Positions 27,161 to 58,179 of a DNA stretch of 64,000 bases are shown piece after piece. Source of the DNA: Pyrinomonadaceae bacterium (GTDB lineage: Bacteria; Acidobacteriota; Blastocatellia; Pyrinomonadales; Pyrinomonadaceae); assembly GCA_030840675.1 (NCBI GenBank), contig JAVEEA010000072.1:3938-67937 (forward strand). The letters are read 5' to 3'. Below the pieces are notes generated by a model. That model was not told the DNA's origin. It was given only the letters and a program-made list of their open reading frames with translations, and ran no database searches. Every line of letters begins with the position of its first letter. Within the stretch, counting starts at the first letter, position 1. The position numbers were made by a program, and so were the translations under genes.

Positions 27161-27340
27161 ATGGTTTCAATCAACAACTTGGACGTGAGGTTTGACGTTG
27201 AAGGCGACGGTGACGAAGCGACGTTTGCCAGATTGTTTGAGAAGTATGTGCGCCAGTGGCACACGAAACAGGAAGAAGCGAGCGAGCGAGAACACCGGGA
27301 CAGGGAAGAGCGGGCCGTGGGAGATCGTCCCGAGGTCTAA
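27161..27340 (+). CDS. small eCIS ORF (59 aa) in the Afp6/Pvc6 position
   Basis: Hand translation gives MVSINNLDVRFDVEGDGDEATFARLFEKYVRQWHTKQEEASEREHRDREERAVGDRPEV. It fills the only gap between tube 2 and the LysM gene, on the same strand, and is below the track threshold. Confidence 0.4.
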   Translation: MVSINNLDVRFDVEGDGDEATFARLFEKYVRQWHTKQEEASEREHRDREERAVGDRPEV

Positions 27341-27345
27341 GAATT

Positions 27346-28005: not shown

Positions 28006-28020
28006 ACCCGGTGAACTCGA

Positions 28021-29855: not shown

Positions 29856-29870
29856 TGTGACAGTGAAACC

Positions 29871-30272: not shown

Positions 30273-30296
30273 GCGCGAAGAAAGCGTGAGGCAAAC

Positions 30297-37100: not shown

Positions 37101-37231
37101 GCAGTCCGCGGGTTGCGCAACCTGACAACCTTCGCCTGACCCACGGTTGATTGTCGTTCGCTCAAGCATTGTTTTCGAGGGTGCAAGGGGAGCCAGCAGT
37201 CAGCAGCTTAATTTGAGGAGCCCAACTAATC

Positions 37232-38650: not shown

Positions 38651-38750
38651 CAACCAAAGGTTCGGAGTTGCAACTTGAATGTCGGCGCAGAGCCCGCCGG
38701 CGTTAGACGACCGGTGGTGGTGACGTTTCCGTTCACGCAAGGAGATCAGA

Positions 38751-42468: not shown

Positions 42469-42486
42469 GAACCGGCAGGCCAAGCC

Positions 42487-44772: not shown

Positions 44773-46962
44773 TTGCTCAATACGATTGCGACAGAACATC
44801 TCCTGCTTCGCTTGCGACCGCTTAATCGCGCCTTGCAAGCGGCGGTCGCCGCTCAGGGACAAGTGGCTGCGCGTCTGTTTCATCCCGATGTCACGCCGTT
44901 GTGCGTGACTGAAGAGCAAGTCCGCCTGCTGTTGAGCGAGATCGATCAGTTGAATACGGATCCCGACGAGCCGCCGCCGGCTAGTCTTTCGCCGGAAGAA
45001 CTTTCCCTGGAAGCAGTCCTGCGCCAGCGAGCCCACGCGGCGCAAACGCAACTTCCGCTCGATCGCCTGGCCCGGGAACTGCAACTCTCAAGCTTCGAAC
45101 AAGAGGCCGTACTCTCATGTGCCGCCGTCGAGTTGGATCGTGCGTACGAACGCATCTATGCCTTCATCCTCGATGATCTCAACCGCCGTTATCCCTGCGT
45201 CGAGTTAATTTGCAATCTCACTACGGCCACCCTGGTTGAGCGTTGCGCCCGGCGTCCGGCGCTTGGTCCGTATGGAAAACTTCGGCGCCATGGAGTGTTG
45301 CGGGCCTATGGAGATCCGCCCACCGAGGGACGCCAGGAATTGCGACTGGCGACTGGCCTGTTCGCTTTTCTGACCGGCGCCGCCGGAGACGCGACTACAC
45401 TCTTTCGCGACCGGAGCAAGGTAACTTTACCCGCGCATCCGGACGGAAGGCTCCCCGCCGAAATCGATGCTGAGTTAGTAAGGCGTGCCGGACGTGCGAT
45501 CAGTGCTGGCGAAATTGCCGTGTTGGGTATTTGGGGTCCGCGCCATTCAGGTCAAAAGGAAGTTGTGCTCGCGGTCGCGGTCGCCGCGGGTTTGCCGTTG
45601 CGCTGTTGGCCCGCCGGCGAGATCACGACTCCGGGTTTTAGTTGGGAACAGAGCATTGCGGAATCCATTCATTGCGCGACGGCCTTAGGATCGCTGTTAT
45701 GGATTGATACTGACTTGCTTGACGGTCAAGCCAACGAAGGTTTGCGGGCCTTGAGTGCGCTGCTCGCAGACTACCTGGCCGTCTGCAGGATTCCCATCAT
45801 TCTCACCGGCACAAACCCCTGGCGTCCCACCGCTCTGCTTGAAGCACGACCTTATGCCCAACTGGAAACCAGCACGCCGGGCTATGCCATGCGTCAGGCT
45901 ATGTGGGAACGCGCGTTGCCCGAAGTAAGCCGGAATCACCGTGATGATTTGGCTGCTCGTTTTCGGATGAACAATCAGGAGTTACGCGCCGTGGCACTGA
46001 TGACCGGGACGCAAGCGTGTCTCGCCAACAACGGCAGCGCACTTACGATCAATGAGCAACTCGAACAAGCATGCGACGCCATTACACGCAAGCAGAGTCA
46101 CCGCTTTGCCAGCGTAATCAGACCGCGACGCGGCCGCGATGACTTGATTCTTCCAGCTCCGCTGCACCAGCAGATAATTGAGATTGCGCAGTTTCATCGC
46201 GCCTGGCCGCGCGTGGCTGAAGGCTGGGGCTTTGGCCGGATGATAACTGGAGAAGGCGGCATCAAGGTGCTGTTCACCGGCCCTTCGGGTACCGGCAAAA
46301 CGTTAGCCGCCGAAGTGATCGCCGGCGAACTGCGCATGGCCCTGCTCAAAATAGATTTGTCTCGCGTCGTTTCCAAGTGGGTGGGCGAGACAGAGCGCAA
46401 CCTGGAACAGGCGTTCAGTGAAGCCGAGGACAGCAACGCATTGTTATTTTTCGACGAAGCGGATTCGCTGTTTGGAAAGCGCGGCGAGGTGCGTCACGGC
46501 GTCGACCGTTATGCGAACCTCGAAGTCAGTTACTTGTTGCAGCGACTGGAAACATATTTCGGTCTGGTCATTCTCGCCAGCAACCTGCGCGAGAACATCG
46601 ACGCTGCCTTCACCCGCCGTTTCCAGATCGTATTGAACTTTCCTCGTCCCGAACCAGCCGAGCGCCAGCGTATTTGGCGGCTAGCGTTTCCAGCCGCGGC
46701 ACCGGTCGACGAAGAGGTGGATTTCGAGTTGCTGGCAAAGTTGGATATGACCGGTGCGAGCATAATGAATGCCGCCCAGACTGCGGCCTTGCTGGCAATT
46801 GAATCTACGCAGAACGGAAAAGCGGATGGCAGTCAAGCAGCAGTGACAATCATGCCGGCTCACGTGGTCCAGGCAATCGCGCGCCAGTATCAACGCGAAG
46901 CGCGACTGCTGACCGCCTCGGAGTTGGGAGCTTATGCCGAACTGCTGCCGGAGGGACGATGA
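44773..46962 (+). CDS. Afp15-like AAA+ ATPase (eCIS assembly/cargo-loading ATPase)
   Basis: TTG start. Walker A GPSGTGKTLAAEVIA, Walker B LLFFDEADSLFGKR and sensor ILASN. The long N-terminal non-ATPase region matches Afp15/Pvc15-type proteins. Confidence 0.9.
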   Translation: MLNTIATEHLLLRLRPLNRALQAAVAAQGQVAARLFHPDVTPLCVTEEQVRLLLSEIDQLNTDPDEPPPASLSPEELSLEAVLRQRAHAAQTQLPLDRLARELQLSSFEQEAVLSCAAVELDRAYERIYAFILDDLNRRYPCVELICNLTTATLVERCARRPALGPYGKLRRHGVLRAYGDPPTEGRQELRLATGLFAFLTGAAGDATTLFRDRSKVTLPAHPDGRLPAEIDAELVRRAGRAISAGEIAVLGIWGPRHSGQKEVVLAVAVAAGLPLRCWPAGEITTPGFSWEQSIAESIHCATALGSLLWIDTDLLDGQANEGLRALSALLADYLAVCRIPIILTGTNPWRPTALLEARPYAQLETSTPGYAMRQAMWERALPEVSRNHRDDLAARFRMNNQELRAVALMTGTQACLANNGSALTINEQLEQACDAITRKQSHRFASVIRPRRGRDDLILPAPLHQQIIEIAQFHRAWPRVAEGWGFGRMITGEGGIKVLFTGPSGTGKTLAAEVIAGELRMALLKIDLSRVVSKWVGETERNLEQAFSEAEDSNALLFFDEADSLFGKRGEVRHGVDRYANLEVSYLLQRLETYFGLVILASNLRENIDAAFTRRFQIVLNFPRPEPAERQRIWRLAFPAAAPVDEEVDFELLAKLDMTGASIMNAAQTAALLAIESTQNGKADGSQAAVTIMPAHVVQAIARQYQREARLLTASELGAYAELLPEGR

Positions 46963-47054: not shown

Positions 47055-49352
47055 ATGAACTCTAAACGGACTCAGCCCTTAGAGCGCGAGATTCAGGTCG
47101 CGTCAGCGACTGCTGTTTCGAACTCCTATTCGGATCCCTTGAATCGCCTTGAGGACTCGCAATCAGCCCTGGGGAATGCCGCAGTTGCCGAAGCTGCCAA
47201 AAACACCAACACGGCGGGGAGGTCCGGATTGCGATCTGCCATGCAGCCTGGTTTTGGCGCCTTGGAACTACAGTTAAAGGTTGGAAACTCCGGTGTTCAA
47301 AGGGCCCTTCGCGCCGCTTCGATTCAACCGAAGCTTGCCGTTGGCCAGCCAGACGACTTGTACGAACAAGAAGCTGATCATGTGGCACAAATGGTGATGC
47401 GCATGCCGTCTCCGTCCGCGCCGACTGAGGCCTCAGCGTCTGTGCTGGAACGAAAATGTGCTGCCAGTGAAACCGCTCATGAGCAATGTTCGAAATCTGC
47501 TGAGGGGCAGGGGAGAGTGCAACGGAAGCCACTGTTCTCAAGAATCACATCGTTCATTCAGCGTCACGCAAGTGCATCCGAAGGCAGTGGTGAATCGGAA
47601 CTTCGCCAACCGGTGGAAAGCCAAATAAAGAAAACGCGCGGCGGAGGGGAACCGTTGTCAGCTAATGCACGCTCCTTTTTTGAACCGCGGTTTGGCATGG
47701 ACTTCAGCGAGGTTCGCGTGCACACCGGTAACGATGCTAACGAAATGAACCGCGCCGTCGGCGCCCGGGCCTTCACCCACGGTTCGGACATTTACTTTGG
47801 CGCGGGAAACAGTCCAGCAGATTTAGAGCTCACCGCGCACGAGTTGACCCACGTGGTGCAACAGACCGGCGAAGGCGCGAGCCCGTCAGATGCCGAGCCC
47901 GCGGTGCAACGCGTGCCGATTGCAACCAACGGCGGCAGCTTCGACACCCCCAGCGGCTACTATGGCATCAACGCGCCGACCGGCGCGATTGGACAGCGCC
48001 TCGGCGCGAACATTTGGCTCGAATTCATGGCCAACGATTTAGTCGAGAGCACCAAGATAGGCTTGATACAGAGCGTAAAGGCGATGAAAAGTTCGGCGCC
48101 TGCCGGATCGCGCGACACCGTCGCGACAGGGGTGGGCGATACCGAAGAGGGCCAGCTCATCATGGGCCCCGGTCAGGCAGATCCGGGCCGCGAAATCGAT
48201 CAGGCAGTGCACCCTGGAGGCAGGGCGGTGCCTAGCACCAGCCCCGTCTATGGCGTCGGATACAGCGCCGGCGGCGGGGAGACGACCTTGAGCCAGGGCG
48301 CGCCGTCAGTAGCGAATAGCCAGTGGGGCTCGCACACGAAGGATCCCATAACCGGGGCTTTTCTGGCGGCTGTGCCGGCTCGCATCGCAGATGGGCCGGG
48401 CCGCACCATTGAGTTCGTTGGTCAGAACTTCGAACACACCTTCGAGGTCGCCGCCCTGGCAATCGAAGGTCCCATCCCAGTAAATACTTATCTGGGGTCA
48501 GTATCGTGGGGCTATACCTCGGACGCCGCCGGCCACGTGACCGTCGCTCCCCTGGCGTTGGTAGGCGCCGGCACGCCCAGTGCCGGCTTCATGGGTGCCG
48601 CAGAGCGCTGGAACGCGGCCACTTTCCAGAATGCCCCCGGCGCCGCGCTCCCTTCAGTCGATATCCCGATCACCAACCTGACTTCCACTCTGGTGTCCAC
48701 CCGAACCACGAGCGATCTGGTTATCCAGATCGCCAGGATCACCGCCGAGTTGATTCCGATGGCTCCCGGTACGGATAGGGCCAACAAGGAATTTGAGAAG
48801 AGGGCGATGGAAGCCGAGCTGGCCAGGCGCGCCGATCAGCCAACTCGCTCTCTGGCGGATCAGGAAGCGTCCGCCGCTCTACTCTCGACGGCCGATCTCA
48901 TCAGACGCTCCGACGCGCTGCCTGCCGAGATTCGTGCCATGCCGGCAAGTCCGCCGCGCACCGACAAGGAACTGGAGCAGGAGGGCGTGAAGCGAGAGAT
49001 CGCGAAGCGAAGAATGCTCATCACCGTCCACGTCCATGAGACCGAGGACATTATTGGCTCCGACAGCGTCTACGTTACAGCGGTGTCCGGGTTTCTAAGC
49101 AATAGGACTTCCGTAGTCAACCTGAACAACGGCGAGGAACATGCCTTCGTCGTGCCTCTTTCCGCCCTATTTGTCGCGCCGCTTACGATGGGATCCACCT
49201 CGCTAGTGATCCGGGCATACGACGAGGACTGGGAGGGAGACGACAAGATGTTCGAGAAAGATTGGATATGGTCCAATCTCCCGGCGGAAGAGACGCAGTC
49301 CCGGGACGGCGGCAGGTACACCGTGCGGATCGACTTCGTGCAGCTGAGATGA
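47055..49352 (+). CDS. DUF4157-domain protein (HExxH), putative eCIS cargo/effector 1
   Basis: AGGAGG RBS. Motifs are IQPKLAVGQPDDLYEQEADHVAQMVM, GGGEPLSANARSFFEPRFGMDFSEVRVHTGNDA and LTAHELTHVVQQ. Confidence 0.8.
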   Translation: MNSKRTQPLEREIQVASATAVSNSYSDPLNRLEDSQSALGNAAVAEAAKNTNTAGRSGLRSAMQPGFGALELQLKVGNSGVQRALRAASIQPKLAVGQPDDLYEQEADHVAQMVMRMPSPSAPTEASASVLERKCAASETAHEQCSKSAEGQGRVQRKPLFSRITSFIQRHASASEGSGESELRQPVESQIKKTRGGGEPLSANARSFFEPRFGMDFSEVRVHTGNDANEMNRAVGARAFTHGSDIYFGAGNSPADLELTAHELTHVVQQTGEGASPSDAEPAVQRVPIATNGGSFDTPSGYYGINAPTGAIGQRLGANIWLEFMANDLVESTKIGLIQSVKAMKSSAPAGSRDTVATGVGDTEEGQLIMGPGQADPGREIDQAVHPGGRAVPSTSPVYGVGYSAGGGETTLSQGAPSVANSQWGSHTKDPITGAFLAAVPARIADGPGRTIEFVGQNFEHTFEVAALAIEGPIPVNTYLGSVSWGYTSDAAGHVTVAPLALVGAGTPSAGFMGAAERWNAATFQNAPGAALPSVDIPITNLTSTLVSTRTTSDLVIQIARITAELIPMAPGTDRANKEFEKRAMEAELARRADQPTRSLADQEASAALLSTADLIRRSDALPAEIRAMPASPPRTDKELEQEGVKREIAKRRMLITVHVHETEDIIGSDSVYVTAVSGFLSNRTSVVNLNNGEEHAFVVPLSALFVAPLTMGSTSLVIRAYDEDWEGDDKMFEKDWIWSNLPAEETQSRDGGRYTVRIDFVQLR

Positions 49353-49572
49353 GTCGAAGCCGGCTGCAAGAGATGGCGGCCGAGATAAGCGCTCGGATGT
49401 TCCGACCTGTCATGCGGGCAGGCACGGAACAGCGCTGAAATTAATTCCGCCCATCGTCTCTTCGCGGTCGTCGTGTACTCGATGCCGTCTCGAAGCCTAC
49501 GTCGACCCCTACTTGCGTCAGGTACTGATTTCACACCTGTGCGTGTAATGCGCGCGTGATTGGAGTAACAGC

Positions 49573-50010
49573 ATGGGCAGTCAATCTCTCGACCCAACTG
49601 CTTCGTTCAACACCGGCGGCCTTGAACTTCGCATTGCTGCGCGCGGCTCCAACGCCGTGCTCACCTTGCACAACGACGGTCCGGATCAGCTGACAGTTTT
49701 CAGTTACGTCCAGGGCAGTCTAGAACAGTACGACTGGTTCACGATCTTTATTGCGGGTCCTGCCGAGACGTGCACCCTGCACCTCTACGACGACCGCAAC
49801 GCTTCGGCGCGCGTGACGGCTAACCTCGCTCCCGGCCAGGAAGTCGAACACGTGATCGATGTTGTCGCCTGGGCGCAGCGAAAGCCGAACGGCGCACGGC
49901 CGCTAGCGCCTGGGACCTATCGCATGTGGGCCAGCTACGAAGTAACGGAACCAGGCGACGTGTGGACTGGCAAGTTAGTGTCGCCGACAGTTGCCATCAC
50001 CATCCCGTAA
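49573..50010 (+). CDS. small beta-rich hypothetical protein (145 aa)
   Basis: ATG with a TGGAG RBS and no TM segment or signal. It lies between the two DUF4157 genes. Confidence 0.5.
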   Translation: MGSQSLDPTASFNTGGLELRIAARGSNAVLTLHNDGPDQLTVFSYVQGSLEQYDWFTIFIAGPAETCTLHLYDDRNASARVTANLAPGQEVEHVIDVVAWAQRKPNGARPLAPGTYRMWASYEVTEPGDVWTGKLVSPTVAITIP

Positions 50011-50074
50011 TCGCCAAGGTTCGTGGCTGTGCGAAGTAGCAGCTGCAACTAAACAAACGTTTGCAATCGAACGC

Positions 50075-52117
50075 ATGAAGTCCATTTTTGGCAAGCGACA
50101 AAACACCCAGGCCGACGCGGAGGCATCTGCCGAGCGTCTTCTCGATCTGCGCCAGCCCAAAGCATCAACAAGCGATGGGTTGGACCAAGCCTACTCTGCC
50201 AACGATCAGGGCAGCACACTTAATCTGCAAGCGAGTTTTGGTAACGCTGCCGTGACGCGCACGATAATTCAGCGCAAGGCTGAAGACGCTGAGATGTCCA
50301 GCGTTGCCAGCGCGAGTTCGGAAGCGGCTAACTCTGCGACGGAAGCTCCCGCGGACAATGCCTCCGCTATGGTCGTTGCGGCTGCAACTGTGACGCAGGC
50401 ATTGATCGTTGAAGACAACGTCGAAACAATTGCTTCAGGGCAAATGAAGAAGAGTGAGTTTCTCGCGCAGTTGCGCGCGGCAGTAAGTAGCACCGCCGCG
50501 GACGCACTCGCCGGCAGTCCCATGTCAGCGGCGGCGAGTCTCTACATTGACAACGTCTTTGCTCAATATTCCGCACAAGGTAGTGGCCAACTCGAAGGAA
50601 GCATTCGACGCTACGCACCTGAAGCTGCCGCAGTCACCAGCGCCGGCGCGCTTATACCTATCATCACCGGTCGCGTTCGTCGGTCGCTCACGACATTCGT
50701 GGCGACGGGCCAGCTCACCGGCGTGCCGGAAGGTTTGCCGCTGGGTTTGCCTGGGCCAGGCCCCTTGGGTGCGATGGCAGGCGCAGTCTCCAGTGTAGCG
50801 TCGGGAGTCGCCGACGTTGCTTCAAGTGTGGCCTCCGGAGTGGGGAGCGCGGCTTCCGCCGTGGGCAGTCTTCTTTTCAAAGAGCACAGCGGCGGCGCCC
50901 GAGAAGTTAACGATCCGCGTGCGATTGAAACCCAGTTGGGCTCCGGGCAATCTCTTGACGCTGAGGTGCGCTCACGAATGGAGTCGGCGTTTGGGGAAAG
51001 CTTCAGCGGCGTCCAGGTCCACGCGGATTCGAACGGTGCCGGCATCTCCCAGAATCTCAACGCGCGCGCGCTCACGGTGGGACAACACATCGCCTTTGGC
51101 ACGGCCGAATACCAACCCGGCACATTGATTGGCGATGCGTTGATCGCGCATGAGTTGGCCCATGTGCTGCAGCAACGCGGAGGAGCAGGGGCCGCTAGCC
51201 CGGCAGAGAAGGGAGCTGGCGAGTATGGTTCGCTCGAAGCGGACGCGGATGAGGCTGCGGTCGGCGCGATAGTGTCCGCTTGGGGCGGCGGGAAAAAGGG
51301 ATTGGCGAAGATTGCCAGGAATGCCTTGCCTAGTCTGAAGTCCGGATTGCGTTTGCAGCGCTGCAGTAAGACTTCAAGCGGACCTGTCGGCGCCACGCGA
51401 CTAACCAAGGCGCGAGCGAATTTCCAAAACAAGAATGATCACCTCGCCCCGGACGAACTCGCGAGAATTGACGCGGGTCTGAGCGCGGTGACCGCTGACA
51501 ACTTAAACCTTTGGATTGCCTTTTATGACTACTACTCACGCAATAAGATTTTAAAAATGGATGCGGACACGGCGGCGAAAGCCACAGCCTCCGGGTTATA
51601 CGCCACCACGAAACCGAACGATGACACGTACCTGCGACCAGACTTACTGGCTGCCGGCTTTCCCGCGGCGAAGCTGGGCACGACGTTGATCCACGAATTC
51701 ACCCACACGCGACACGATACCAACTACATGGGAAGCCGTGATTACCAGGAGGGTGAATCTTATGGCATCGAGTATTTCCTGGCGGAACGCGCTGGGGAAC
51801 GCACGCGAATGAGTGAGATTCTCAGTGTTATGTCCAATCCCAAAACCATTGCGATGCCCGCAAGTGTTCCCGCGCTGTTAATGGGATTCAGATCACAATA
51901 CGCGACCATGCAGGGGCTATACGAGATTATCGACAAAGGCCACTCTTCTCATGCCGGCTCACCTTTCGTGACGCCGGTATTGTTGACTGCCGCGGACGCC
52001 AGGGCGTTAGCCGAAGAACTGGTTGACACCAGGGAGGACAATCGTGGAGCACAACTCAAGAGTCTTTTGACCTGGGTTCAGGCCAATCTCAAGAGCTTCA
52101 CAATTCCACCGGTCTAG
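50075..52117 (+). CDS. DUF4157-domain protein with second HExxH-like motif, putative cargo/effector 2
   Basis: Start reset to ATG 50075. The DUF4157 region is GSGQSLDAEVRSRMESAFGESFSGVQVHADSNG ... LIAHELAHVLQQ. A downstream LIHEFTHTRHD motif is encoded at 51692-51706. Confidence 0.8.
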   Translation: MKSIFGKRQNTQADAEASAERLLDLRQPKASTSDGLDQAYSANDQGSTLNLQASFGNAAVTRTIIQRKAEDAEMSSVASASSEAANSATEAPADNASAMVVAAATVTQALIVEDNVETIASGQMKKSEFLAQLRAAVSSTAADALAGSPMSAAASLYIDNVFAQYSAQGSGQLEGSIRRYAPEAAAVTSAGALIPIITGRVRRSLTTFVATGQLTGVPEGLPLGLPGPGPLGAMAGAVSSVASGVADVASSVASGVGSAASAVGSLLFKEHSGGAREVNDPRAIETQLGSGQSLDAEVRSRMESAFGESFSGVQVHADSNGAGISQNLNARALTVGQHIAFGTAEYQPGTLIGDALIAHELAHVLQQRGGAGAASPAEKGAGEYGSLEADADEAAVGAIVSAWGGGKKGLAKIARNALPSLKSGLRLQRCSKTSSGPVGATRLTKARANFQNKNDHLAPDELARIDAGLSAVTADNLNLWIAFYDYYSRNKILKMDADTAAKATASGLYATTKPNDDTYLRPDLLAAGFPAAKLGTTLIHEFTHTRHDTNYMGSRDYQEGESYGIEYFLAERAGERTRMSEILSVMSNPKTIAMPASVPALLMGFRSQYATMQGLYEIIDKGHSSHAGSPFVTPVLLTAADARALAEELVDTREDNRGAQLKSLLTWVQANLKSFTIPPV

Positions 52118-52204
52118 CCAATCAGTGGTCACTCAGATTCGAACCTGGCCTGAGGCAAACAATGCTCGAACCGTTTTTATCCTGGTGCTGAAAGTTGGTA
52201 ACTA

Positions 52205-53374
52205 GTGCCGTGGCCTGACATTAATTCTTACGGCGATCGACTTGTCTCGCTGCACGTCCGCATAGGGCAGCGGCGTTACTCTGCCTTTAGATTTTGGGGA
52301 GCAGCGGGATTGGTAACCGCGGTGTTACTGGACCTCCTGCTCGCGCACCATTACCGACTCCCTGTTTGGCCCACGGCGGCGAGCATCGTCTTTGCCTTCT
52401 TCACGGCTTACGTCTCAGCCTGCGCGACAAAGCTAATATCCGGTCAGGAGAATTTCACTTTCTACCAGGCTTTGATCTCCGTACCGCTAGCGACGTGTGC
52501 TTTCACCTGGTTACTGAGTCAACCAATTTTGCTTTATCTCGACGTAACAATAATCAGTGTGGGTTCGGCGGCGGTGCTGGGCCGGATTGGGTGTCTGCAG
52601 GTGGGTTGCTGTCACGGCCGACCGTACCGCTTTGGCGTTCGCTATCGCGCTGAACATGCCGCCGCGGGATTCACTTCACAACTAGTGGGCGCGCGTTTAT
52701 TTCCAATACAAATCGTCGAAGGCCTTTGTGCGGGGGTGCTGGTAGTTGTTGGCTGTTTCATGATTTGGCAGCGCTATCCGCCTGGGGCGGCCGCTGGTTG
52801 GTTTGTTTCCGGCTATTGCCTGACGCGATTCTGCTTCGAGTTTGCGCGTTGGCCTGCCAACTACCAATTCAAATCGGGACTGTCGCCATATCAAGGGATT
52901 TCCCTTGCGCTCGTTTTGTTCTCAGTCAGTCTCGAGTGGGTTGGCGTGCTGCCGTTTCAATTCTGGCAGGAGTTGACGGCCGCCGGTTTGCTGTTGGCAA
53001 CCGCTGTTGTTGTGCTTGAGCGGCGCCTGCGAAGTTTCGAAAAATCTTTGAGTCAACCCGATCATATTCGAGAATTGACGAGTGCGCTCAATGCGACCCG
53101 GCGCGCGACTGACAGCAACTGCAACTACGCAGGCATTGTAGTGACAACGACGACCCTTGGCTTGCGGATCTCGGCAGCTCGGATCCACGGACCGACAGGC
53201 GACGTGCTTCATTACGCTCTCTCTTCACGATCCGGAAAATTGAGCGCCGCAACGGTTGATTACCTGTTGAAGGCGATCCTGCGACTCCAGAGTATCGGCG
53301 AGCGAACGGTGATGGTCGAAGGGAACGCCGGCGTCATTCACTTCTTGATGCACCGCCAGGCGCACGAGCCATGA
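52205..53374 (+). CDS. Lgt-family (prolipoprotein diacylglyceryl transferase-like) membrane protein with extra C-terminal domain
   Basis: GTG start. It is multi-TM, with an Lgt-like core GRIGCLQVGCCHGRPYRFGV ... LFPIQIVEGL. About 110 aa of soluble C-terminal extension follow. Confidence 0.65.
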   Translation: MPWPDINSYGDRLVSLHVRIGQRRYSAFRFWGAAGLVTAVLLDLLLAHHYRLPVWPTAASIVFAFFTAYVSACATKLISGQENFTFYQALISVPLATCAFTWLLSQPILLYLDVTIISVGSAAVLGRIGCLQVGCCHGRPYRFGVRYRAEHAAAGFTSQLVGARLFPIQIVEGLCAGVLVVVGCFMIWQRYPPGAAAGWFVSGYCLTRFCFEFARWPANYQFKSGLSPYQGISLALVLFSVSLEWVGVLPFQFWQELTAAGLLLATAVVVLERRLRSFEKSLSQPDHIRELTSALNATRRATDSNCNYAGIVVTTTTLGLRISAARIHGPTGDVLHYALSSRSGKLSAATVDYLLKAILRLQSIGERTVMVEGNAGVIHFLMHRQAHEP

Positions 53375-53530
53375 CGCAGCGAAAAATCGCGGCTGAGCGT
53401 GCTGGTGTTTCCGCGGATAGGCCGGCAGTAAACGTCCGAAGGTTTTATGCAAACACCTACTGGCACCGTCCACTACCCGCATTCCTGTTCAATGATCGCG
53501 GGCCGTTTTTTTTGGACATGAAGCACGACG

Positions 53531-56500
53531 ATGAGCCTATCCTTCGACAAACAGACGTTGGCTGAGCAGGAGGATTTGGCGGCTTCCTTGCGGCCGGCCG
53601 CGGCGGCGCTGACGACTGCAACACCGGCGCACAGTACCGATCCCAGCGCACGGCAAACAAGTTCCAGTGCGACCGCGAATGGTCCTGCCGCTTCGTCGTT
53701 TCAAAGTACGCCTAACCTGCAGTCCGCTTTTGGGAACGCTGCTATTGCCCAATCACTAAGTCAGCAAAGCTCGGCAAATGAACCGGGCTCTCATGTTGGT
53801 GGTCCGGCCTCTTTCGAAAATGCCCGCCAGCAGTTTGGTTACGGTAACGGCGCCGTCGCGCGCGCAAATCTGTCGGTGGGAACCGGTTTGCAGTCGCACC
53901 CGGCAACTTCCGGAAATCCAGTCGCAAGCGCCGCAAGTTCGGCCTCACCACAACCATCACTGACTGGACTACCAGCGATCAATAACGCGGGCGCGCTTGC
54001 ACCCGACGTGCGTTCCGTGCCTCAAGTCCCGCAGACTGAGGTTGGCCCCCCGACCCCCGGGACAGGAAACCAATTGCCTTCAGCAACAGGCGTTGGCCCA
54101 GTCGCGTCCCCAAATTCTGAAGGCCCAGTCTCGCCAGAGACACCGCCCCGTCCAGCCGGTGCCCAGACCAGCGCGCCCGCAACCGTTGGGCCGCCAGCGG
54201 AACAGACAACATCAGATCGTTCCGCAAAGGAACCGTCAGAGCGCGCTGCCAGCAGTGTCGCTGAGACGGGTGCTTCCCCCAGCGGTCCGGAAAATTCTGT
54301 TAAAGGTGACGGCCCAGGTTTGAATAGCGAACAAGCCGTGGAGACGGCGGGTGCGTCAGGCGACAATGCAGGAACGAGCCTTACTGCTCTTGACGTACCC
54401 GAGACGCCTGAGGTCGACACGCAACCCGCCATTGATACCGAGCTGGTCGCGAATGCCGCACCCAACCTGCAAACAGCGATCGCGCAAGTAAGGTCAACGA
54501 TTGCGCAGAAGAAAACGCAAATTCGGACGGCCGCCGCGGCAGCGAAAGATGCGCTGCACACTCAAGCCGCGACTAAACGACAAGAGGTAAGCAACGCCGC
54601 CAGTGAACTGGTGCAGCGAGCGAGAACTGACGTTGCGCAAAGTCGCTCGCAAGTTTCGTCTATCATCGGCGAGCAACGTGCAGTGGTGTCGCGGACTCTA
54701 GCGGTACAAAAGGAAACTACGCATCAGGGCGTAACGCGAGAGTCGCAGCGCCTTGGTACTGAAGCCGCGAAACTGAGCGTGTCGGTAATGAGTGTGGCCC
54801 GCGATCGGACCAGCGCCGCTGCCGCGCTTGGCGTCGCGCAATCCACTCGCGCGCGCACCGAAGTCGCGAGGCAATCCGCCGAAGCTCGTCGGCGAGGCGC
54901 TAACAAAGCGCATTCCATACGCGACGAAGATCCGGAGCGGGCACAGACACAACAATTTGCCGTGCTTCAAGTTGCTGAAGAACAGGCGCAGCAGATTACC
55001 ACTACCGGTCCTGAGATTGAGCAGTTCGCGCTTGACCGGGCCGGCGAGATTGCTACCAGTTTTTCAGCCCAGGCGATACAGGTTGCCACGGGAATCAATA
55101 GTGCAGTGCCCGAAGTGCAGGCGTCGGTGCTCAGCTTGAGTAACCATGCCGATGGGCACATGGATCGGCTGGCGCAGACTACGCTCGGTTCTTTGGCTGG
55201 TTTGGAACAGCGTCTGATGCGTCAACTGGACGAGCTGGAAGCAGCGTCACTGCTCCAGGCTCGCGGACTCGCCCGAGAAATTCTGCCGCAGATCGACGCC
55301 GCCGAGCAGGCTGGTGTGGCGCAGCTTGCTTCGTTAACTCAAAGGGCCCTGGCGGCGCTCGACGATTCAGCCGGCGACACGATTGCAGAATTAACTGCCG
55401 CTGATACTCCGGGCGAAGCTCAGGTGGGCACACGCCAGGAAGAAATTGCGCAACAGACTCTCACTCATTTTCAGACGCTCACTCATTATCTCGACACTCA
55501 AATATTGGAGATAGCCGCGCATGCAAACGACGGGTTCACGCAAATCCAGGCGCAGTTGAACGGCGCGCTCACCGCTACCCAGGAAGCGGCACGCTCAGGA
55601 GTTAACTCGCTGGTGCAGCAGCTGAATCAAGGCTTCGAACTGGCGCGCAACGAAGTGGTAGGGAAGGCGACTGGAATAGTCGATCAGTCGTTGGCGAAGT
55701 TCGGCGAACCGGTAAACAAAGCGATCGCGGAGTTTCAAAGCACCTATGCAAAAGGCGAACGGGATGTAATCGCGGGAGTGACTGACAGTCTGCTCTCGAA
55801 TGACCGGGCACTCGATGAAATGGGTACCCACTGTAAGTTGACCGAAGCCGCCGACCGCGCCAGGGAGGAATACGATCGCCCCACCTGGCAAAAAGTACTC
55901 ATCGCTGTAGGCAAAGCGGTGCTCTATCTCGCCGCGGCGCTTCTTTTTACTTTTGTGGTGGCGGTCGTGATTTTCGTGGGCGCGATTATTCTGGGAATTA
56001 CCGGCGTCACGTTCGCCATTGCGTTTGCGATTGCCGTGGTTTTGGTGGCGATTGGTTTTGTCATTTATGAATTTGTTCAGCGGCTCATTGCTTACAAAGC
56101 GGAACACGGTGCCATCGATAGCTTTTGGGAGGCACTCGGTGTTTCGGCAGCATTACTTTTGATAAGCGTCGCCAGTCTTACCGGCATACCACAAATTATC
56201 GAAGGCCTCAGGGGTAAACGTTTCTTCAGCGACATTCCACTCACTTCACAGGAACGCTACGATCTCGTAATCGGCGGCGTTCTTCAACTGGTCTTGATCG
56301 TCGTTGCCAGATCTTTCAGGGGACGTGGGGGACGTACCGGGCGCGCAGGCCCCGTAGAAGAACCGCTGCCGGTGCGTCCTCCAATTGAAGAAGAACCGCC
56401 GGTGGTCCTCGTTGACCCGTGGGCCGTCCTCGCCAGGCGATTTGGTCTCAGCGCCGAGGTGATCGAAATCCTTCGTACCAGCGGCATCGACGTTACCGTG

Positions 56501-57370
56501 TTCGAGCGCATCCTCGCCCGTGGCGTCAGTGGCGAAACGGTTGGTCTGATTACTAGTTTGCACGGCCGCGCCGGCGTCGGTGTGCTCGATCGGATGTCTG
56601 CTGACGGCTTTACCGACGGCGATATTCTGCGGCTTGTCGACGACGCTGACCGGCTGGGCCAGTTGGACGCTCTCAGCGATCTGACTGCGCGCGGGATAGC
56701 CCAGAGGCTGCTGCGCAATGGCTTCGACTCGACCGAGCTGATTCTCTTGCTACAGGAGTTGCATCAGGCGGGCATCCAGACAATCGACGGACTGATGCGA
56801 GCCGGTGTACAAAAGGCCCCGGCCATCGAAGCCGCGCGACTGGCAAGACAAATTGGTGCGGTCGAAGAAGTGACCCAACTGGCAACGAGTGGTAATCTTG
56901 AGAATCCGCTGGGCCTGCGAAACTTCCTGAGAGAAGTGGCTGCTGAACTAGAAGTTGGTAATCAAGGCAAACTCACCCAGTTGCGTGAAGCTGCGCAGAG
57001 ATCTTCGGGTGGCCCAGTGGCAATCGAGAGATCAGCACGGGGCCAGGCTGATATTATCGACTTCGGTCGGCAAGAAGCGCTGCAGATGAAAGTGGTGAGC
57101 AGCCCCGAGCCTGCTCAGGTTGGCGTAAGGGTTAACGAGGCTGCGAGCCAGCTTCGTGGCGAGAGAGGTGAGGTTCCGCCGGCCGGGTTTAAGACGATCG
57201 CCGATATCCGCATCACGAACCCCGACAATCCGATGTTTCCGCTTAACCGTGCGCAGTTACTACTGCAGTTAAGAAATAATGGCGTGACGCAGGCATCGCT
57301 GGCAGGCGTCGGCGAAGTGCATGTCACCAATGGGAGCGGCACACACGTCTACACTCCTAACGAGTTTTAA
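53531..57370 (+). CDS. 1279-aa coiled-coil/TM protein sharing the cargo N-terminal leader motif; putative cargo/effector 3
   Basis: The LQSAFGNAAIAQSL leader resembles those of the DUF4157 proteins. Order: Pro/Ser/Ala-rich region, about 450 aa of Ala/Gln/Glu-rich helical region, two to three TM helices (aa ~790-880), then a ~370-aa C-terminal globular region. Confidence 0.75.
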   Translation: MSLSFDKQTLAEQEDLAASLRPAAAALTTATPAHSTDPSARQTSSSATANGPAASSFQSTPNLQSAFGNAAIAQSLSQQSSANEPGSHVGGPASFENARQQFGYGNGAVARANLSVGTGLQSHPATSGNPVASAASSASPQPSLTGLPAINNAGALAPDVRSVPQVPQTEVGPPTPGTGNQLPSATGVGPVASPNSEGPVSPETPPRPAGAQTSAPATVGPPAEQTTSDRSAKEPSERAASSVAETGASPSGPENSVKGDGPGLNSEQAVETAGASGDNAGTSLTALDVPETPEVDTQPAIDTELVANAAPNLQTAIAQVRSTIAQKKTQIRTAAAAAKDALHTQAATKRQEVSNAASELVQRARTDVAQSRSQVSSIIGEQRAVVSRTLAVQKETTHQGVTRESQRLGTEAAKLSVSVMSVARDRTSAAAALGVAQSTRARTEVARQSAEARRRGANKAHSIRDEDPERAQTQQFAVLQVAEEQAQQITTTGPEIEQFALDRAGEIATSFSAQAIQVATGINSAVPEVQASVLSLSNHADGHMDRLAQTTLGSLAGLEQRLMRQLDELEAASLLQARGLAREILPQIDAAEQAGVAQLASLTQRALAALDDSAGDTIAELTAADTPGEAQVGTRQEEIAQQTLTHFQTLTHYLDTQILEIAAHANDGFTQIQAQLNGALTATQEAARSGVNSLVQQLNQGFELARNEVVGKATGIVDQSLAKFGEPVNKAIAEFQSTYAKGERDVIAGVTDSLLSNDRALDEMGTHCKLTEAADRAREEYDRPTWQKVLIAVGKAVLYLAAALLFTFVVAVVIFVGAIILGITGVTFAIAFAIAVVLVAIGFVIYEFVQRLIAYKAEHGAIDSFWEALGVSAALLLISVASLTGIPQIIEGLRGKRFFSDIPLTSQERYDLVIGGVLQLVLIVVARSFRGRGGRTGRAGPVEEPLPVRPPIEEEPPVVLVDPWAVLARRFGLSAEVIEILRTSGIDVTVFERILARGVSGETVGLITSLHGRAGVGVLDRMSADGFTDGDILRLVDDADRLGQLDALSDLTARGIAQRLLRNGFDSTELILLLQELHQAGIQTIDGLMRAGVQKAPAIEAARLARQIGAVEEVTQLATSGNLENPLGLRNFLREVAAELEVGNQGKLTQLREAAQRSSGGPVAIERSARGQADIIDFGRQEALQMKVVSSPEPAQVGVRVNEAASQLRGERGEVPPAGFKTIADIRITNPDNPMFPLNRAQLLLQLRNNGVTQASLAGVGEVHVTNGSGTHVYTPNEF

Positions 57371-58179
57371 TGGAAGACAGGATGAGAAATCTTTGGGTTA
57401 CGCGCGATGATCCAATCGCTGGTTGGGTTGCGGACCTGACTCCGTTACAACCTGAGCCGCAGGTTTTGCTGGACTGGTTGCAAAAGGTGTTGGCGGAAGG
57501 CGAGCGCTGTGAAGTATTCAAGGTTCGCGCCGCCCCTCTGGCTGATTATGTTTGGGCCAAAGATGGTCCACTAGCCTCTTATCTCAGACAGAGTTTTGCT
57601 GACACCGGAGTGGTGGACCTGTTCCATTTTTCTACTTCCCAGCTGAAGGTAATGGGAGACTCGCAGTTTCAGGCCTTAGCGCGCATGGCTTACTTTGACG
57701 CTGAGGGTCGACTGGCTGAAGCGGATGTCGCTGATCTGGGGTTGCTGCTGCGCAGCGTTCGTCCAGCCGATTTCGAAGTTAACTGGGGCCTATTCCATCG
57801 CTGCTTCCCGCTGCTGATCACGGGTCCAAAGGTAGTTTTAGGAAACCTGCAACCAGCGATCGCAGCGGATAAGCCGGAGGCCATCCGAGTCCGGTTTCGG
57901 ATCTTCTCTGACATTTGGTTTCCCTGGGTGCTTGGTTTTCTGGAGGACTCGTTTGACGTCAACCGCATGTATGACAATCGCCTTCTTTCCGAACGACACA
58001 CGCCGCGTTTGAACCGCTTTCTTTCGTTCGTCAGTGACCTCACCAAAGCGCTCGGGGGAACCTGGCAACTCGATAAGGAGGAATCGAACACAGTCTCGGC
58101 CTTCATGCTGGCGGACGAAGGCATACGTTTCGACGTGGAACCTCCTGCCGTATGGCCCATTGACCAAGACTCCCGCTGA
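57370..58179 (+). CDS. hypothetical protein, candidate immunity/accessory partner of the 1279-aa protein
   Basis: The ATG shares one nucleotide with the upstream TAA (TAATG). 269 aa, cytoplasmic-looking, no motif recognised. Confidence 0.6.
   Translation: MEDRMRNLWVTRDDPIAGWVADLTPLQPEPQVLLDWLQKVLAEGERCEVFKVRAAPLADYVWAKDGPLASYLRQSFADTGVVDLFHFSTSQLKVMGDSQFQALARMAYFDAEGRLAEADVADLGLLLRSVRPADFEVNWGLFHRCFPLLITGPKVVLGNLQPAIAADKPEAIRVRFRIFSDIWFPWVLGFLEDSFDVNRMYDNRLLSERHTPRLNRFLSFVSDLTKALGGTWQLDKEESNTVSAFMLADEGIRFDVEPPAVWPIDQDSR

Follow-up and report, generated by a model that had tools for sequence, protein, structure and literature searches.

The window, i.e. the whole stretch of 64,000 nucleotides that was analyzed, contains an eCIS locus, for an injection machine of the phage-tail-like kind, that runs from a cap gene to the gene of an Afp15-like AAA+ ATPase (20.6–47.0 kb) and is followed by the genes of three large proteins, P1, P2, and P3 (all features described below lie on the + strand). 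The structural gene block (20623..44754), delineated by Pfam matches and the open reading frame (ORF) map, encodes a Pvc16_N cap, two sheath and two tube proteins, CIS_tube+LysM, VgrG-like OB, PAAR, and gp25 proteins, two Baseplate_J proteins, Tail_P2_I, and five products without a Pfam match. Judged by Pfam, the gene set is complete and is closed by the Afp15/Pvc15-like ATPase (44773..46962), which has an N-terminal winged helix domain (PF22977, aa 8–190), a degenerate middle domain, and an active AAA domain (PF00004, aa 499–624), and for which 24 metagenomic relatives were found. An earlier reading of the sequence only had placed proteins of 765, 680, and 1279 aa directly after the ATPase. 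Their sizes and positions hold, but they are not contiguous, as two genes that had been omitted intervene, both with conserved synteny. The first is a 145-aa ORF between P1 and P2 (49573..50010; no known family), which is conserved in the corresponding place in a relative from Blastocatellia (E 2e-64 to locus L145). The second, between P2 and P3, encodes a 389-aa Lgt-like (prolipoprotein diacylglyceryl transferase family) membrane protein (52205..53374; PF01790, 52.7 bits) with ∼6 transmembrane (TM) segments. It is below the Lgt equivalog cutoffs, with NCBIfam scores far under cutoff, and recurs beside P2-type proteins (homologues in L121, L145/L146, and L058). P3 is followed by a 269-aa ORF of no known family (57370..58179), the ATG of which shares one base with the stop codon of P3 (TAATG) and which has no counterpart in a relative with a different third cargo. 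The Lgt-like protein, the 145-aa ORF (candidate immunity/accessory protein), and the 269-aa ORF (candidate cognate immunity protein) are probably immunity or accessory factors.

P1, P2, and P3 appear to be modular, polymorphic-toxin-like proteins that would be composed of four parts in order: a polar N-terminus of ∼35–60 residues without a signal peptide; a short, putatively amphipathic element of ∼17 residues, termed leader A; an optional third part with block B and a DUF4157/eCIS_core metallopeptidase-like domain; and an exchangeable C-terminal body. The third part comprises block B and DUF4157 in P1, DUF4157 only in P2, and neither in P3. The full DUF4157 signatures that had been assigned to the first two proteins were confirmed: the sequences are AHELTHVVQQ in P1 and AHELAHVLQQ in P2, and the PF13699 profile (now eCIS_core) matches aa 200–273 of P1 and aa 322–398 of P2 with 94 bits (cutoff 22). 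The same profile gave no match to P3. That DUF4157 is enriched at eCIS loci and fused to toxins, as the sequence-only reading stated, is borne out by Geller et al. 2021 (PMC8213781), where it is an eCIS core domain with an odds ratio of 2614, either toxin-fused or toxin-adjacent.

P1 (765 aa, 47055..49352) starts with an ATG that has an AGGAGG Shine-Dalgarno sequence 6 nt upstream. Its first copy of leader A (aa 32–54, 47148..47216; core QSALGNAAVAEAA) scores 23.5 bits with the seed HMM, and the pattern match is at nt 47169. The second copy (LQLKVGNSGVQRALRAAS), absent from the list of the sequence-only reading, is a canonical leader (aa 68–91) that runs into block B (IQPKLAVGQPDDLYEQEADHVAQMVMRM; aa 88–120, 66 bits), and together they occupy aa 68–120 (47256..47414). 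The PF13699 domain with its HExxH (47652..47873, 94.4 bits) is followed by a conserved beta-rich domain with no recognised fold and a helical linker (aa 283–651, 47901..49007; AF2 pLDDT 89.8). The beta-rich domain has 40+ homologues across phyla, some of them without PF13699, and its structure gave no match in the PDB or BFVD. A Foldseek search of the C-terminal region against the PDB, which had been suggested, identified a C2-like beta-sandwich with Asp-rich loops (aa 652–762, 49008..49340), matching Munc13 C2B, perforin C2, and cPLA2 C2 with E values from 1e-6 to 1e-4, a probability of 1.00, and a TM(target) of ∼0.5. As modeled, the C-terminal body of P1 would be composed of the beta domain and a C2-like membrane-binding sandwich.

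P2 (50075..52117) comprises 680 aa from its ATG, or 708 aa from an alternative TTG start at 49991 (49991–52117). It contains leader A (LQASFGNAAVTRTI; aa 51–64 from the ATG, 50225..50266; 18.9 bits), PF13699 (50954..51184, 94.4 bits), a conserved linker that ends with SGLRLQRCS, and a C-terminal domain (51203..52114) that contains another HExxH and is all-alpha in a confident model (pLDDT >90 for residues 60–304). Across 10 homologues, neither the HEFTHTRH sequence of this domain nor Glu residues downstream of it vary, and comparison of the model with solved structures gave no match. The C-terminal body of P2 is predicted to be a novel all-alpha HExxH domain.

P3 (1279 aa, 53531..57370) has two copies of leader A (LQSAFGNAAIAQSL, aa 63–76, 53717..53758; QQFGYGNGAVARANL, aa 97–119, 53819..53887), followed by a Pro/Ser/Ala-rich region, a ∼490-aa Ala/Gln-rich helical region, a TM module of ∼4–5 helices (aa 787–931, 55889..56323), a helical linker, and a toxin-like end domain of ∼200 aa (56753..57367) from a family without a Pfam model. 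Elsewhere, the TM module is found in proteins with PT-HINT or Ntox28 at the end, or with leader A or PF13699 at the start. The end-domain family, with an invariant Asp (ADIID) and Lys (QMK), terminates PT-HINT, RHS, WXG100, leader, or DUF4157 proteins. At least one of P1–P3, most notably P3, might alternatively serve in the structure or assembly of the particle and not be a toxin payload, for example as a plug, as a membrane anchor, or as a lumen protein of the tape-measure type, as the long Ala/Gln-rich helical region and TM helices of P3 resemble Tme and Sle1 (PMC11126660; 10.1101/2025.11.06.686954) and the post-ATPase gene in relatives is always very long (870–2400 aa). We consider this very unlikely: unlike structural proteins, P3 has almost no full-length homologues, and a close relative has an unrelated protein in its place; both the TM module and the end domain of P3 are mobile modules of polymorphic toxins; a small ORF is translationally coupled to P3; and the usual tape-measure position, flanked by the genes of the tube initiator and the spike, is taken by another conserved ORF of 397 aa. 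The C-terminal parts of P1–P3 look like effectors. The sequence-only reading had described them as unrecognised effector domains; they do behave as swappable effectors, but they are partly recognisable (C2-like fold, second HExxH, polymorphic-toxin end domain).

An h-G-N-x-A-[VI] element is present in all three proteins, 39–110 residues from each start, and every string that had been quoted for this shared motif was found, including a further one in P3 (FGYGNGAVARANL). The consensus of leader A is hhxLQRxxGNxAVxRLL generally and xQSxhGNAA[VI] in this locus. When all 64 kb are translated in six frames, [LFIVM]GN.A[VILM] occurs four times, three of which are these leaders. With the leader HMM, P1–P3 alone scored 8.0–18.9 bits in the window (next-best ORF, 5.8 bits), and in 120 P1 homologues every match of at least 9.7 bits was at ∼aa 4–100 (aa 4–61 for the 19 non-seed homologues among them). 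A scan of GTDB genomes with a degenerate DNA pattern gave at least 123 in-frame instances in ∼11 phyla, and leader A occurs in at least 11 bacterial and archaeal phyla. Among the matches listed, the motif is in frame in 123/123 cases, its median position is 43 aa past the first ATG (94 of 105 within 25–80), positions left free by the pattern are also conserved (V/I/L at –3 in 108/123; A/I/V at +4 in 106/123), and a hydrophobic stretch resembling a signal peptide is absent from all 122 segments that precede the motif. Chance or low-complexity likeness among Ala/Ser/Gln-rich N-termini, which the compositional bias of these regions and the shortness of the core motif might suggest, has next to no probability and was refuted by the in-frame and positional conservation, by the conserved unconstrained positions, and by a reversed-sequence control (353,000 residues), in which the best match had 6.0 bits, compared with 8–38 bits for real matches. 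Among the matches listed, PF13699 is found in 34 of 97 complete motif ORFs (35%), and the remaining ones carry Aspzincin_M35, DUF922, Endonuclea_NS_2, TGL, Peptidase_C2, VanY, Het-C, SLT, Ntox1, Reprolysin_4, or no recognised domain; block B tracks DUF4157 (25/30) and leader A stands alone in 78/123. Leader A is a separable, position-fixed module on many unrelated C-termini.

As an outcome that would refute its proposal, the sequence-only reading had named a lack of enrichment of the leader next to eCIS loci. Strong enrichment was found, in favor of the proposal, in both a forward and a reverse test. In the forward test, which sampled post-ATPase ORFs from a phylogenetically narrow group (soil Acidobacteriota), the motif is present in ∼10/12 loci in the gene that immediately follows the ATPase, with cargo bodies that are unrelated and mostly without DUF4157. 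The motif is in the first large post-ATPase ORF of seven loci (L121, L122, L123, L125, L127, L131, and L132), with sub-threshold variants in three others (L128, L130, and L134), and in these relatives only the ORF immediately downstream of the ATPase gene gave leader HMM matches of at least 8 bits. Locus L145 has leader A in each of its three large island proteins, and the protein at the P3 position is homologous to P3 in the leader only (top BLAST segment). The reverse test covered 120 blocks of 8 kb, framed at random around motif genes, among the matches listed. Of these blocks, 14 (expected, far <1%) contain eCIS structural genes or the N-domain of the eCIS ATPase, and in five of the 14 the start of the motif gene directly follows the ATPase (Acidobacteriota L028 and L117; Chloroflexota L045, L089, and L110). 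In a Methanosarcinaceae contig, six leader genes lie upstream of the ATPase. Leader A is absent from L147 and L148, the only two eCIS-type loci from a scan of viral contigs (ATPase 33–37% identical), and from L149, a locus with three DUF4157 ORFs.

Among the matches listed, 12% of motif genes have an eCIS link within the 8-kb block (42% when DUF4157 is counted), 70/120 blocks (∼58%) have neither PF13699 nor an eCIS gene, and the two nearest neighbors of motif genes in 106 marker-free blocks are mostly housekeeping genes. Together with the occurrence of the P3 end domain behind WXG100/T7SS_signal, RHS, and PT-HINT modules of other secretion routes, this could indicate that leader A marks a broad polymorphic-toxin family that uses another route or acts in the producer, with eCIS as one context and the adjacency seen here a matter of gene-island clustering rather than of mechanism. 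Such an explanation is unlikely. The frames of the 8-kb blocks are arbitrary, so the context seen is often <4 kb; motif genes immediately follow the eCIS ATPase in several phyla; and, among the matches listed, PF13699, the domain with the highest known eCIS specificity, is fused to 35%, Sec-like signals are absent throughout, and no other secretion-system genes recur among the neighbors. In addition, CIS-dependent secretion in a haloarchaeon extends to DUF4157 proteins whose genes lie outside the cluster (PMC11566945), and an eCIS-adjacent motif gene (L010) and an orphan one (L093) occur together in at least one MAG (CAVWLS01).

With a probability of roughly 60%, P1–P3 are modular toxin-like eCIS cargo in which leader A is part of an N-terminal loading signal, a role assigned by analogy. 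P1–P3 would be guided by their N-terminal region, with leader A as its docking helix, to the tube lumen or the spike end of the particle and would then be injected, and loading would depend on the ATPase, as for AlgoCIS Cgo1/Cgo2 and PVC/Afp cargo. The PVC N50, Afp18 NT20, and AlgoCIS LS signals were reported to have no conserved residues and to act via polarity or disorder, so the real signal could be the polar first 35–40 residues. A possible, though clearly less probable, arrangement is that P1–P3 are eCIS cargo loaded via this disordered extreme N-terminus, and that leader A is a docking or processing motif for a partner other than the ATPase: a DUF4157 adaptor in cis or trans, the spike, the tube-initiator, or the cap, or else a cleavage site of the DUF4157 metallopeptidase. 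Published eCIS signals lie in the first 20–70 residues, whereas the motif starts only at ∼aa 35–60; in Streptomyces, a small DUF4157 protein reportedly binds proteins of the spike complex and also an effector without DUF4157, at the N-terminal region of the effector (10.1101/2025.11.06.686954); and DUF4157 was proposed as a cis or trans chaperone by Danov et al. (PMC11297309). P3, with a leader and no DUF4157, lies beside two DUF4157 proteins, and PF13699 is the sole Pfam family that stands out near motif genes (10/202, top in both sets, among the matches listed). However, a separate DUF4157 gene is present in only 5/78 blocks without DUF4157 in cis among the matches listed, so a local trans partner is usually missing. 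Overall, the proposal of the sequence-only reading, that the leader is the packaging signal of three injected payloads, is partly supported. It is held at this level because, among the matches listed, an eCIS link in the 8-kb block is missing for most motif genes (∼58–88%, depending on the criterion), because either the motif or the preceding polar 35–40 residues may be the recognised element, and because of the extra island genes and the partly recognisable C-terminal domains. Since the tag is at the same place on variable toxins from at least 11 phyla, leader A may be an address label, perhaps the first sequence-defined one for this machine type.

The closest parallel is AlgoCIS from Algoriphagus machipongonensis (Xu et al. 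2022, PMC8894135), in which the cargos Cgo1 and Cgo2 are also encoded in the CIS cluster, differ greatly in size, share a similar N-terminus, and have a predicted disordered N-terminal region, DUF4157, and a variable C-terminal domain (PMC8894135; PROCIS preprint 10.64898/2026.05.27.728243). The C-terminal domain of Cgo1 is, as in P2, a predicted second metalloprotease. AlgoCIS cargo can be loaded without DUF4157 but not without the NTD (10.64898/2026.05.27.728243), with the AAA+ protein Alg15 implicated in the process (PMC8894135; 10.64898/2026.05.27.728243). In contrast to Cgo1/Cgo2, which were compared by description, the motif here is sharply conserved and also present on DUF4157-less P3; the AlgoCIS authors state that loading sequences are not conserved between systems (PMC8894135; 10.64898/2026.05.27.728243). 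Bacteroidota-like DUF4157 homologues (by our reading of their taxonomy) have block B and lack leader A; if this taxonomy holds, the analogy stops short of the motif itself. PVC/Afp signals are likewise N-terminal, non-Sec, and polar or disordered, and the effectors are encoded downstream of the eCIS ATPase (Jiang et al. 2022, PMC9054023; Evans & Waterfield 2024, PMC11495950; Afp18 NtSP preprint 10.1101/2023.11.13.566157). PVC signal peptides depend on Pvc15 (PMC9054023, PMC11495950), and PVC/Afp loading on the Pvc15/Afp15 AAA+ ATPase (PMC9054023; PMC11495950; 10.1101/2023.11.13.566157). These signals comprise 20–70 residues with 'rare' or 'no' conserved residues and tolerate point mutations, whereas leader A has invariant G-N-x-A-V-like positions 35–60 residues in, in many phyla, and its eCIS lineage is not from Gammaproteobacteria. 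Among eCIS-associated toxins (EATs), P3 matches the class 'EAT adjacent to DUF4157 genes' (Geller et al. 2021, PMC8213781; Danov et al. 2024, PMC11297309), for which the 'signal peptide score' reflects composition (hydrophobicity, disorder, aromaticity) and no sequence motif was described (PMC8213781; PMC11297309); unlike in EATs with DUF4157, the C-terminal domains here have no Pfam family. P3 also resembles Streptomyces Tme and Sle1 (PMC11126660; 10.1101/2025.11.06.686954), which are very long, largely disordered or helical, contain several TM helices, end in a toxin-type domain, and are encoded with DUF4157 proteins. This likeness is one of architecture; P3, unlike Tme, has no N-terminal DUF4157 and its end domain is from another family. 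Finally, by analogy only, since they belong to T6SS and are larger folded domains with no sequence relationship to leader A, the MIX, FIX, and RIX domains (PMC10435454) are likewise conserved N-terminal markers on polymorphic effectors, many of them orphans with genes outside the secretion cluster, and can be used for finding effectors.

[quoted passage not shown] The window comes from a metagenome-assembled genome of the Pyrinomonadaceae (Acidobacteriota), and its 20.6–47.0 kb region holds a complete eCIS gene set on the + strand. From 20.6 kb on, the structural genes encode a Pvc16_N cap/terminator (PF14065; 20623–21192, +), two sheath and two tube paralogues, a CIS_tube+LysM protein, a VgrG-like OB protein, PAAR, gp25, two Baseplate_J proteins, Tail_P2_I and five family-less ORFs. 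Sheath, tube, the gp25 and Baseplate_J wedge, and the VgrG-like spike with PAAR are all found, and the Pfam families detected for them are PF04984/PF17482 (twice), PF06841 (twice), PF19266, PF04717, PF05488, PF04965 and PF04865 (twice). The last gene of the set encodes an Afp15/Pvc15-type ATPase of 729 aa (44773–46962, +) with an N-terminal winged-helix domain (PF22977) and one canonical AAA domain (PF00004). No capsid, terminase or TssJLM genes were present among the ORFs scanned between 17.8 and 58 kb. The sheath, tube and Baseplate_J genes are duplicated, at 21927–27121 and 30695–34959 (+), with sheath 1 (847 aa) being much longer than sheath 2 (548 aa). The five successive ORFs between the baseplate genes and the ATPase (472, 644, 386, 223 and 755 aa; 37232–44754, +) have no Pfam family and are kept in related eCIS loci (L004, L010 and L145); they presumably include a tail fibre and other lineage-specific parts.

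The sequence-only reading had placed the three large proteins directly after the ATPase. This is true of P1 (765 aa; 47055–49352, +), which is the next gene, is preceded by an AGGAGG ribosome-binding site and is 100% identical to NCBI protein QOJ88_1029, but the three genes are not contiguous. A family-less ORF of 145 aa (49573–50010, +) lies between P1 and P2, and an Lgt-like membrane protein of 389 aa (52205–53374, +) lies between P2 and P3. Translation of P2 (+) gives 680 aa when begun at the ATG at 50075, and 708 aa when begun at the TTG at 49991. P3 (1279 aa; 53531–57370, +) is followed by an ORF of 269 aa (57370–58179, +), the P3 stop codon and the ATG of this ORF overlapping in TAATG. 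The island is closed by a convergent gene for a sigma-54-dependent transcriptional activator (58234–59316, −), which may regulate the eCIS or its cargo and whose position is kept in L145/L146, a syntenic locus from a Blastocatellia relative. A promoter and terminator scan of 46.5–59.5 kb gave no signal exceeding shuffled controls.

The N-terminal module is leader A, a short h-G-N-x-A-[VI] element. The leader strings that had been quoted for P1, P2 and P3 are each present in the sequence, and one further copy in P1 (aa 68–91), which continues directly into the conserved block IQPKLAVGQPDDLYEQEADHVAQMVMRM, had been missed; P1 and P3 carry two copies each. The pattern [LFIVM]GN.A[VILM] has four matches when the whole window is translated in six frames, and three of these are the leaders. 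A leader profile scored 8.0–18.9 bits on P1, P2 and P3, with the next best window ORF at 5.8 bits and a maximum of 6.0 bits on reversed sequences (353,000 residues). The N-terminus preceding the leader is polar, non-hydrophobic and non-Sec, as in PVC/Afp-type signal peptides, and no transmembrane segments were found within the first 780 aa of P1–P3. The assignment of DUF4157 to two of the three proteins also stands, as PF13699, whose Pfam name is now eCIS core domain, scores 94.4 bits each in P1 and P2 (cutoff 22), with AHELTHVVQQ and AHELAHVLQQ. P3 is not a member, since PF13699 was absent at E ≤ 0.01 and our own DUF4157 HMM gave no match.

Leader A, with the general form hhxLQRxxGNxAVxRLL, is matched strictly in about a third of the 120 best P1 homologues, and all profile matches of at least 9.7 bits lie at about aa 4–100 of proteins 450–1300 aa long. 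In 19 proteins outside the profile seed set, the match is at aa 4–61. Because starting from DUF4157 homologues introduces a bias, a degenerate DNA pattern back-translated from LQRxxGNxAVxRLL was used to scan the GTDB species, each represented by a single genome. The pattern specifies about 37 bits, which by rough estimate corresponds to about 10 chance matches in the whole collection; the scan returned at least 123 matches in at least 120 blocks. All 123 listed matches are in frame within an ORF. Among the matches listed, the median distance from the first ATG is 43 residues (94 of 105 at 25–80), the preceding 35 residues are rich in Ala, Pro, Arg and Ser, and positions left free in the pattern are also kept (V/I/L at −3 in 108/123, L at −2 in 74/123, and A/I/V at +4 in 106/123). 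None of 122 pre-motif segments from these matches contained a signal-peptide-like stretch (15-aa window, Kyte–Doolittle >1.8). An origin of leader A by chance or from low complexity is ruled out by the in-frame, positional and reversed-sequence controls. The hydrophobic spacing (−3, 0, +4, +8/+9 and +12/+13) suggests that leader A forms a short amphipathic helix.

The hosts among the matches listed are Acidobacteriota, Chloroflexota, Actinomycetota (Streptomyces, Kitasatospora, Saccharopolyspora and Solirubrobacterales), Desulfobacterota, Nitrospirota, Gemmatimonadota, Spirochaetota, Dormibacterota, Bacillota, Binatota and Alphaproteobacteria, and, among archaea of methanogenic or methanotrophic type, Methanosarcina and Methanoperedens. 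Sub-threshold N-terminal variants, e.g. MQQSLGNARANRML and MQRSVGNARLNRM, were observed in relatives of the P3 C-terminus (P0134, P0143, P0159 and P0177), so that the counts given here understate the breadth of the leader family. No model in Pfam or NCBIfam covers leader A, and no description of it was found in the open-access literature, although the motif may have been noticed elsewhere.

The leader module is associated both with the position of the eCIS ATPase and with DUF4157. One explanation of the latter association is that leader A is merely the N-terminal part of the DUF4157 family. This is ruled out, as 63–65% of the listed instances lack DUF4157: among the matches listed, Pfam detects PF13699 in only 34 of 97 complete motif ORFs, and the remainder contain Aspzincin_M35, DUF922, Endonuclea_NS_2, TGL, Peptidase_C2, VanY, Het-C, SLT, Ntox1, Reprolysin_4 or nothing recognised. 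DUF4157 is tracked instead by block B, a second conserved block with the consensus IQxKLxVGxPxDxYEQEADxxAxxVM. DUF4157 is present in 25 of 30 block-B carriers, and leader A stands without a companion in 78 of 123 ORFs (both among the matches listed). In three P1 relatives (P0023, P0025 and P0036), the leader is joined straight to the P1 C-terminal domain without DUF4157. An eCIS was not seen downstream of the P0036 gene, which lies 885 nt from the contig end and is hence uninformative in this respect. A Cys-pair motif, (L/I)QRKCxxCxxEE, recurs between block B and DUF4157 in the N-terminal linkers of many DUF4157 homologues (P0049, P0056, P0060, P0068, P0070, P0076, P0086 and P0092); at the equivalent place P1 has ERKCAASETAHEQC.

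The proposed enrichment of the leader next to eCIS genes was examined in both directions. In the forward direction, we used 24 metagenomic loci with ATPase relatives of 34–76% identity. Leader matches of at least 8 bits were confined to the ORF immediately following the ATPase (L121, L122, L123, L125, L127, L131 and L132), and sub-threshold variants were found in the same place (PPMGNAAAAAMARS in L128, PGMGNGAVAAMARS in L130 and AIFGNSAVAAS in L134). With these variants included, about 10 of the 12 loci with enough downstream sequence were positive. The proteins that follow the ATPase in the forward loci have 870–2400 aa, mostly lack DUF4157 and are non-homologous to P1–P3. In L145/L146, the order is ATPase, P1-like gene, 145-aa ORF, P2-like gene, an extra ORF, Lgt-like gene, a gene for a 1288-aa protein and the sigma-54 activator. 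Leader A is present in each of the three large proteins of that island; it forms the top BLAST segment between the 1288-aa protein and P3, which are otherwise unrelated. Leader A was absent from L147 and L148, the only two eCIS-type loci returned by a scan of viral contigs (ATPase 33–37% identical). The ATPase profile in that scan used generic Walker-type patterns; 23 of 26 loci were rejected as unrelated AAA proteins, and only L147–L149 were usable.

In the reverse direction, the 120 listed motif blocks are arbitrary 8-kb frames, in which eCIS genes were detected by single-sequence searches only. eCIS structural genes or the N-domain of the eCIS ATPase were found in 14 of these 120 blocks, compared with a base rate for a random 8-kb block that we estimate at well below 1% from the occurrence of eCIS in about 2% of genomes (PMC8213781). 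The motif gene begins right after the ATPase in two Acidobacteriota blocks (L028 and L117) and three Chloroflexota blocks (L045, L089 and L110). In two adjacent blocks of a Methanosarcinaceae contig (L065 and L071; DAOUSW010000002.1, 32001–48000), six leader-A genes lie in a row directly upstream of an eCIS-type ATPase. Archaeal leader clusters of a similar kind were observed in L014, L104 and L021/L037. When PF13699 in cis or in trans is counted, an independent eCIS link is present in 50 of the 120 listed blocks. Enrichment is thus borne out by both tests (about 10 of 12 forward loci, and 14 of 120 listed blocks against <1%), but many listed blocks have no eCIS link. In the listed blocks without such a link, the two nearest genes are ordinary housekeeping genes, which makes ‘orphans’ of many leader genes. 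DUF4157 proteins whose genes lie outside the CIS cluster are secreted by the CIS of a haloarchaeon (PMC11566945); by this analogy, orphan leader genes would be compatible with CIS delivery, which is not proof of it.

The C-termini of the island proteins are exchangeable and toxin-like. They had been described as unrecognised effector domains, but they are in part recognisable, with a C2-like fold at the end of P1, a second HExxH in P2 and, at the end of P3, a domain of a polymorphic-toxin family. The AlphaFold model of P1 aa 283–765, built from a 45-sequence alignment, is confident (pLDDT 89.8) and consists, in order, of a beta-rich domain, a helical linker and a terminal beta-sandwich. The beta-rich domain has no match in PDB structures, BFVD or PDB sequences; the only matches of the region are to C2 domains and lie in its last 110 residues. 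The terminal sandwich (aa 652–762; 49008–49340, +) fold-matches the C2 domains of Munc13 (C2B), perforin and cPLA2 (E 9e-7 to 1e-4, probability 1.00, TM(target) about 0.5). These best fold matches are eukaryotic C2 domains. Pfam C2 gives no match in P1, and the C2 assignment therefore stands at the level of fold. Two Asp-rich loops (TEDIIGSD and YDEDWEGDD) resemble, by inspection only, Ca2+-binding loops. The modelled C2-like domain hints at Ca2+-dependent membrane targeting and perhaps at a eukaryotic target.

The C-terminal domain of P2 has only ten homologues, in which HEFTHTRH and downstream Glu residues are invariant; judging from these residues, they constitute a second metallopeptidase-like motif. 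Its model is confident and all-alpha, and searches of the PDB matched the domain neither by fold (best E 0.7) nor by sequence. In P2-type proteins, a conserved segment after DUF4157 ends in SGLRLQRCS, with an almost invariant Cys. The neighbouring Lgt-like protein (prolipoprotein diacylglyceryl transferase family) scores far under the Lgt equivalog cutoffs. Its gene adjoins P2-type DUF4157 proteins in four loci, namely the window, L121 (14632–15861), L145 (16808–18013) and L058 (ORF on the − strand); one of the four is a Solibacter block in which no eCIS genes are visible. The Lgt-like protein might confer immunity, or it might lipidate cargo.

For P3, a full-length search returned only one 99% identical protein and one weak match, the word-index search having probably been swamped by low complexity. 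An exhaustive search with the last 499 residues returned 214 representative proteins and revealed two mobile modules of P3, a transmembrane module (aa 787–931) and an end domain of about 200 aa with invariant Asp and Lys. The P3 region at aa 300–790 is Ala/Gln-rich and has a weak apolipoprotein-like match. Among the 89 relatives of the P3 C-terminus with at least 450 aa, 10 have leader A at the start and 16 have DUF4157. Other relatives carry PT-HINT (6 proteins), RHS, PT-TG or WXG100/T7SS_signal, and some end in Ntox28 or TNT instead. The P3 end domain thus occurs behind varied N-terminal modules, as is characteristic of polymorphic toxins, and likewise the P1 C-terminal domain occurs behind the leader only (in P0023, P0025 and P0036) or behind the leader and DUF4157. 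As these mobile modules are found with varied partners, P3 is a polymorphic-toxin scaffold. The end domain has no PDB or Pfam match; from the invariant Asp and Lys, we would guess at a PD-(D/E)xK nuclease. The 145-aa ORF behind P1 is co-conserved with P1 in L145 (E 2e-64), and the 269-aa ORF is absent where the third cargo differs. Neither belongs to a known family, and the pattern would suit cognate immunity or accessory proteins.

We propose that leader A is a loading signal for eCIS cargo, with a probability of roughly 0.6. By analogy with AlgoCIS, PVC and Afp, the N-terminal region would target P1–P3 to the particle in an ATPase-dependent manner. Such targeting by an N-terminal region has been demonstrated for PVC and Afp (PMC9054023, PMC11495950, 10.1101/2023.11.13.566157), and in AlgoCIS the NTD is necessary for loading and DUF4157 is dispensable (10.64898/2026.05.27.728243). 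It is less probable, at perhaps one chance in four, that the proteins are cargo but the motif has another partner. A serious rival of this kind is that leader A is a docking site for a DUF4157 adaptor or spike, or a processing site, which is favoured by the published signals of PVC, Afp and AlgoCIS being located at the extreme N-terminus and described as without conserved residues, unlike leader A. Such a role would still be new for this large class of proteins. Other explanations carry small weights. The loading-signal proposal has a wider and more tentative form, which we hold at somewhat under even odds: leader A (hhxLQRxxGNxAVxRLL and variants) may be a sequence-defined, DUF4157-independent cargo-loading tag of CISs across many phyla, and would then be the first conserved CIS export motif. 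If so, it picks out a large number of orphan CIS effectors whose genes are distant from those of the machine, and provides a portable tag for loading foreign proteins.

As far as the open-access literature, Pfam and NCBIfam show, the new part is a sequence-defined, DUF4157-independent leader common to several phyla, whereas eCIS loading sequences have repeatedly been stated not to be conserved. Cargo selection by eCISs is an open problem that matters in practice, since protein-delivery devices are being engineered from PVC, Afp and AlgoCIS. The motif is short, invariant, fixed in position and common to hundreds of otherwise unrelated toxin-like proteins, so its recognition is directly testable. 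It could help in finding effectors whose genes lie apart from those of the machine, allow the function of the leader to be told from that of DUF4157, a domain that is still enigmatic, and expose new effector domains such as the bacterial C2-like domain, the new HExxH fold and the Pfam-less toxin end domain.

The island as such is of a kind already known, namely DUF4157-type eCIS-associated toxins or AlgoCIS-like cargo. P1 and P2 have the architecture of the Cgo-type cargos of AlgoCIS, with a disordered NTD, DUF4157, a variable CTD and a gene within the CIS cluster, and P3 fits it apart from DUF4157. A predicted metalloprotease C-terminal domain, as in P2, has been reported for Cgo1 (PMC8894135; 10.64898/2026.05.27.728243). 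With PVC/Afp-type signal peptides, the island proteins share a polar N-terminal leader without a Sec signal. Similar to the tapemeasure-related effectors Tme/Sle1 of Streptomyces (PMC11126660; 10.1101/2025.11.06.686954), P3 has a very long ORF, a helical region, several TM helices and a C-terminal toxin domain, but it lacks the N-terminal DUF4157 of Tme and is for this reason not assigned to their family; it had no tape-measure match in Pfam, the only source searched, which is a weak test of such homology. Conceptually, leader A is paralleled by the MIX, FIX and RIX markers of T6SS effectors.
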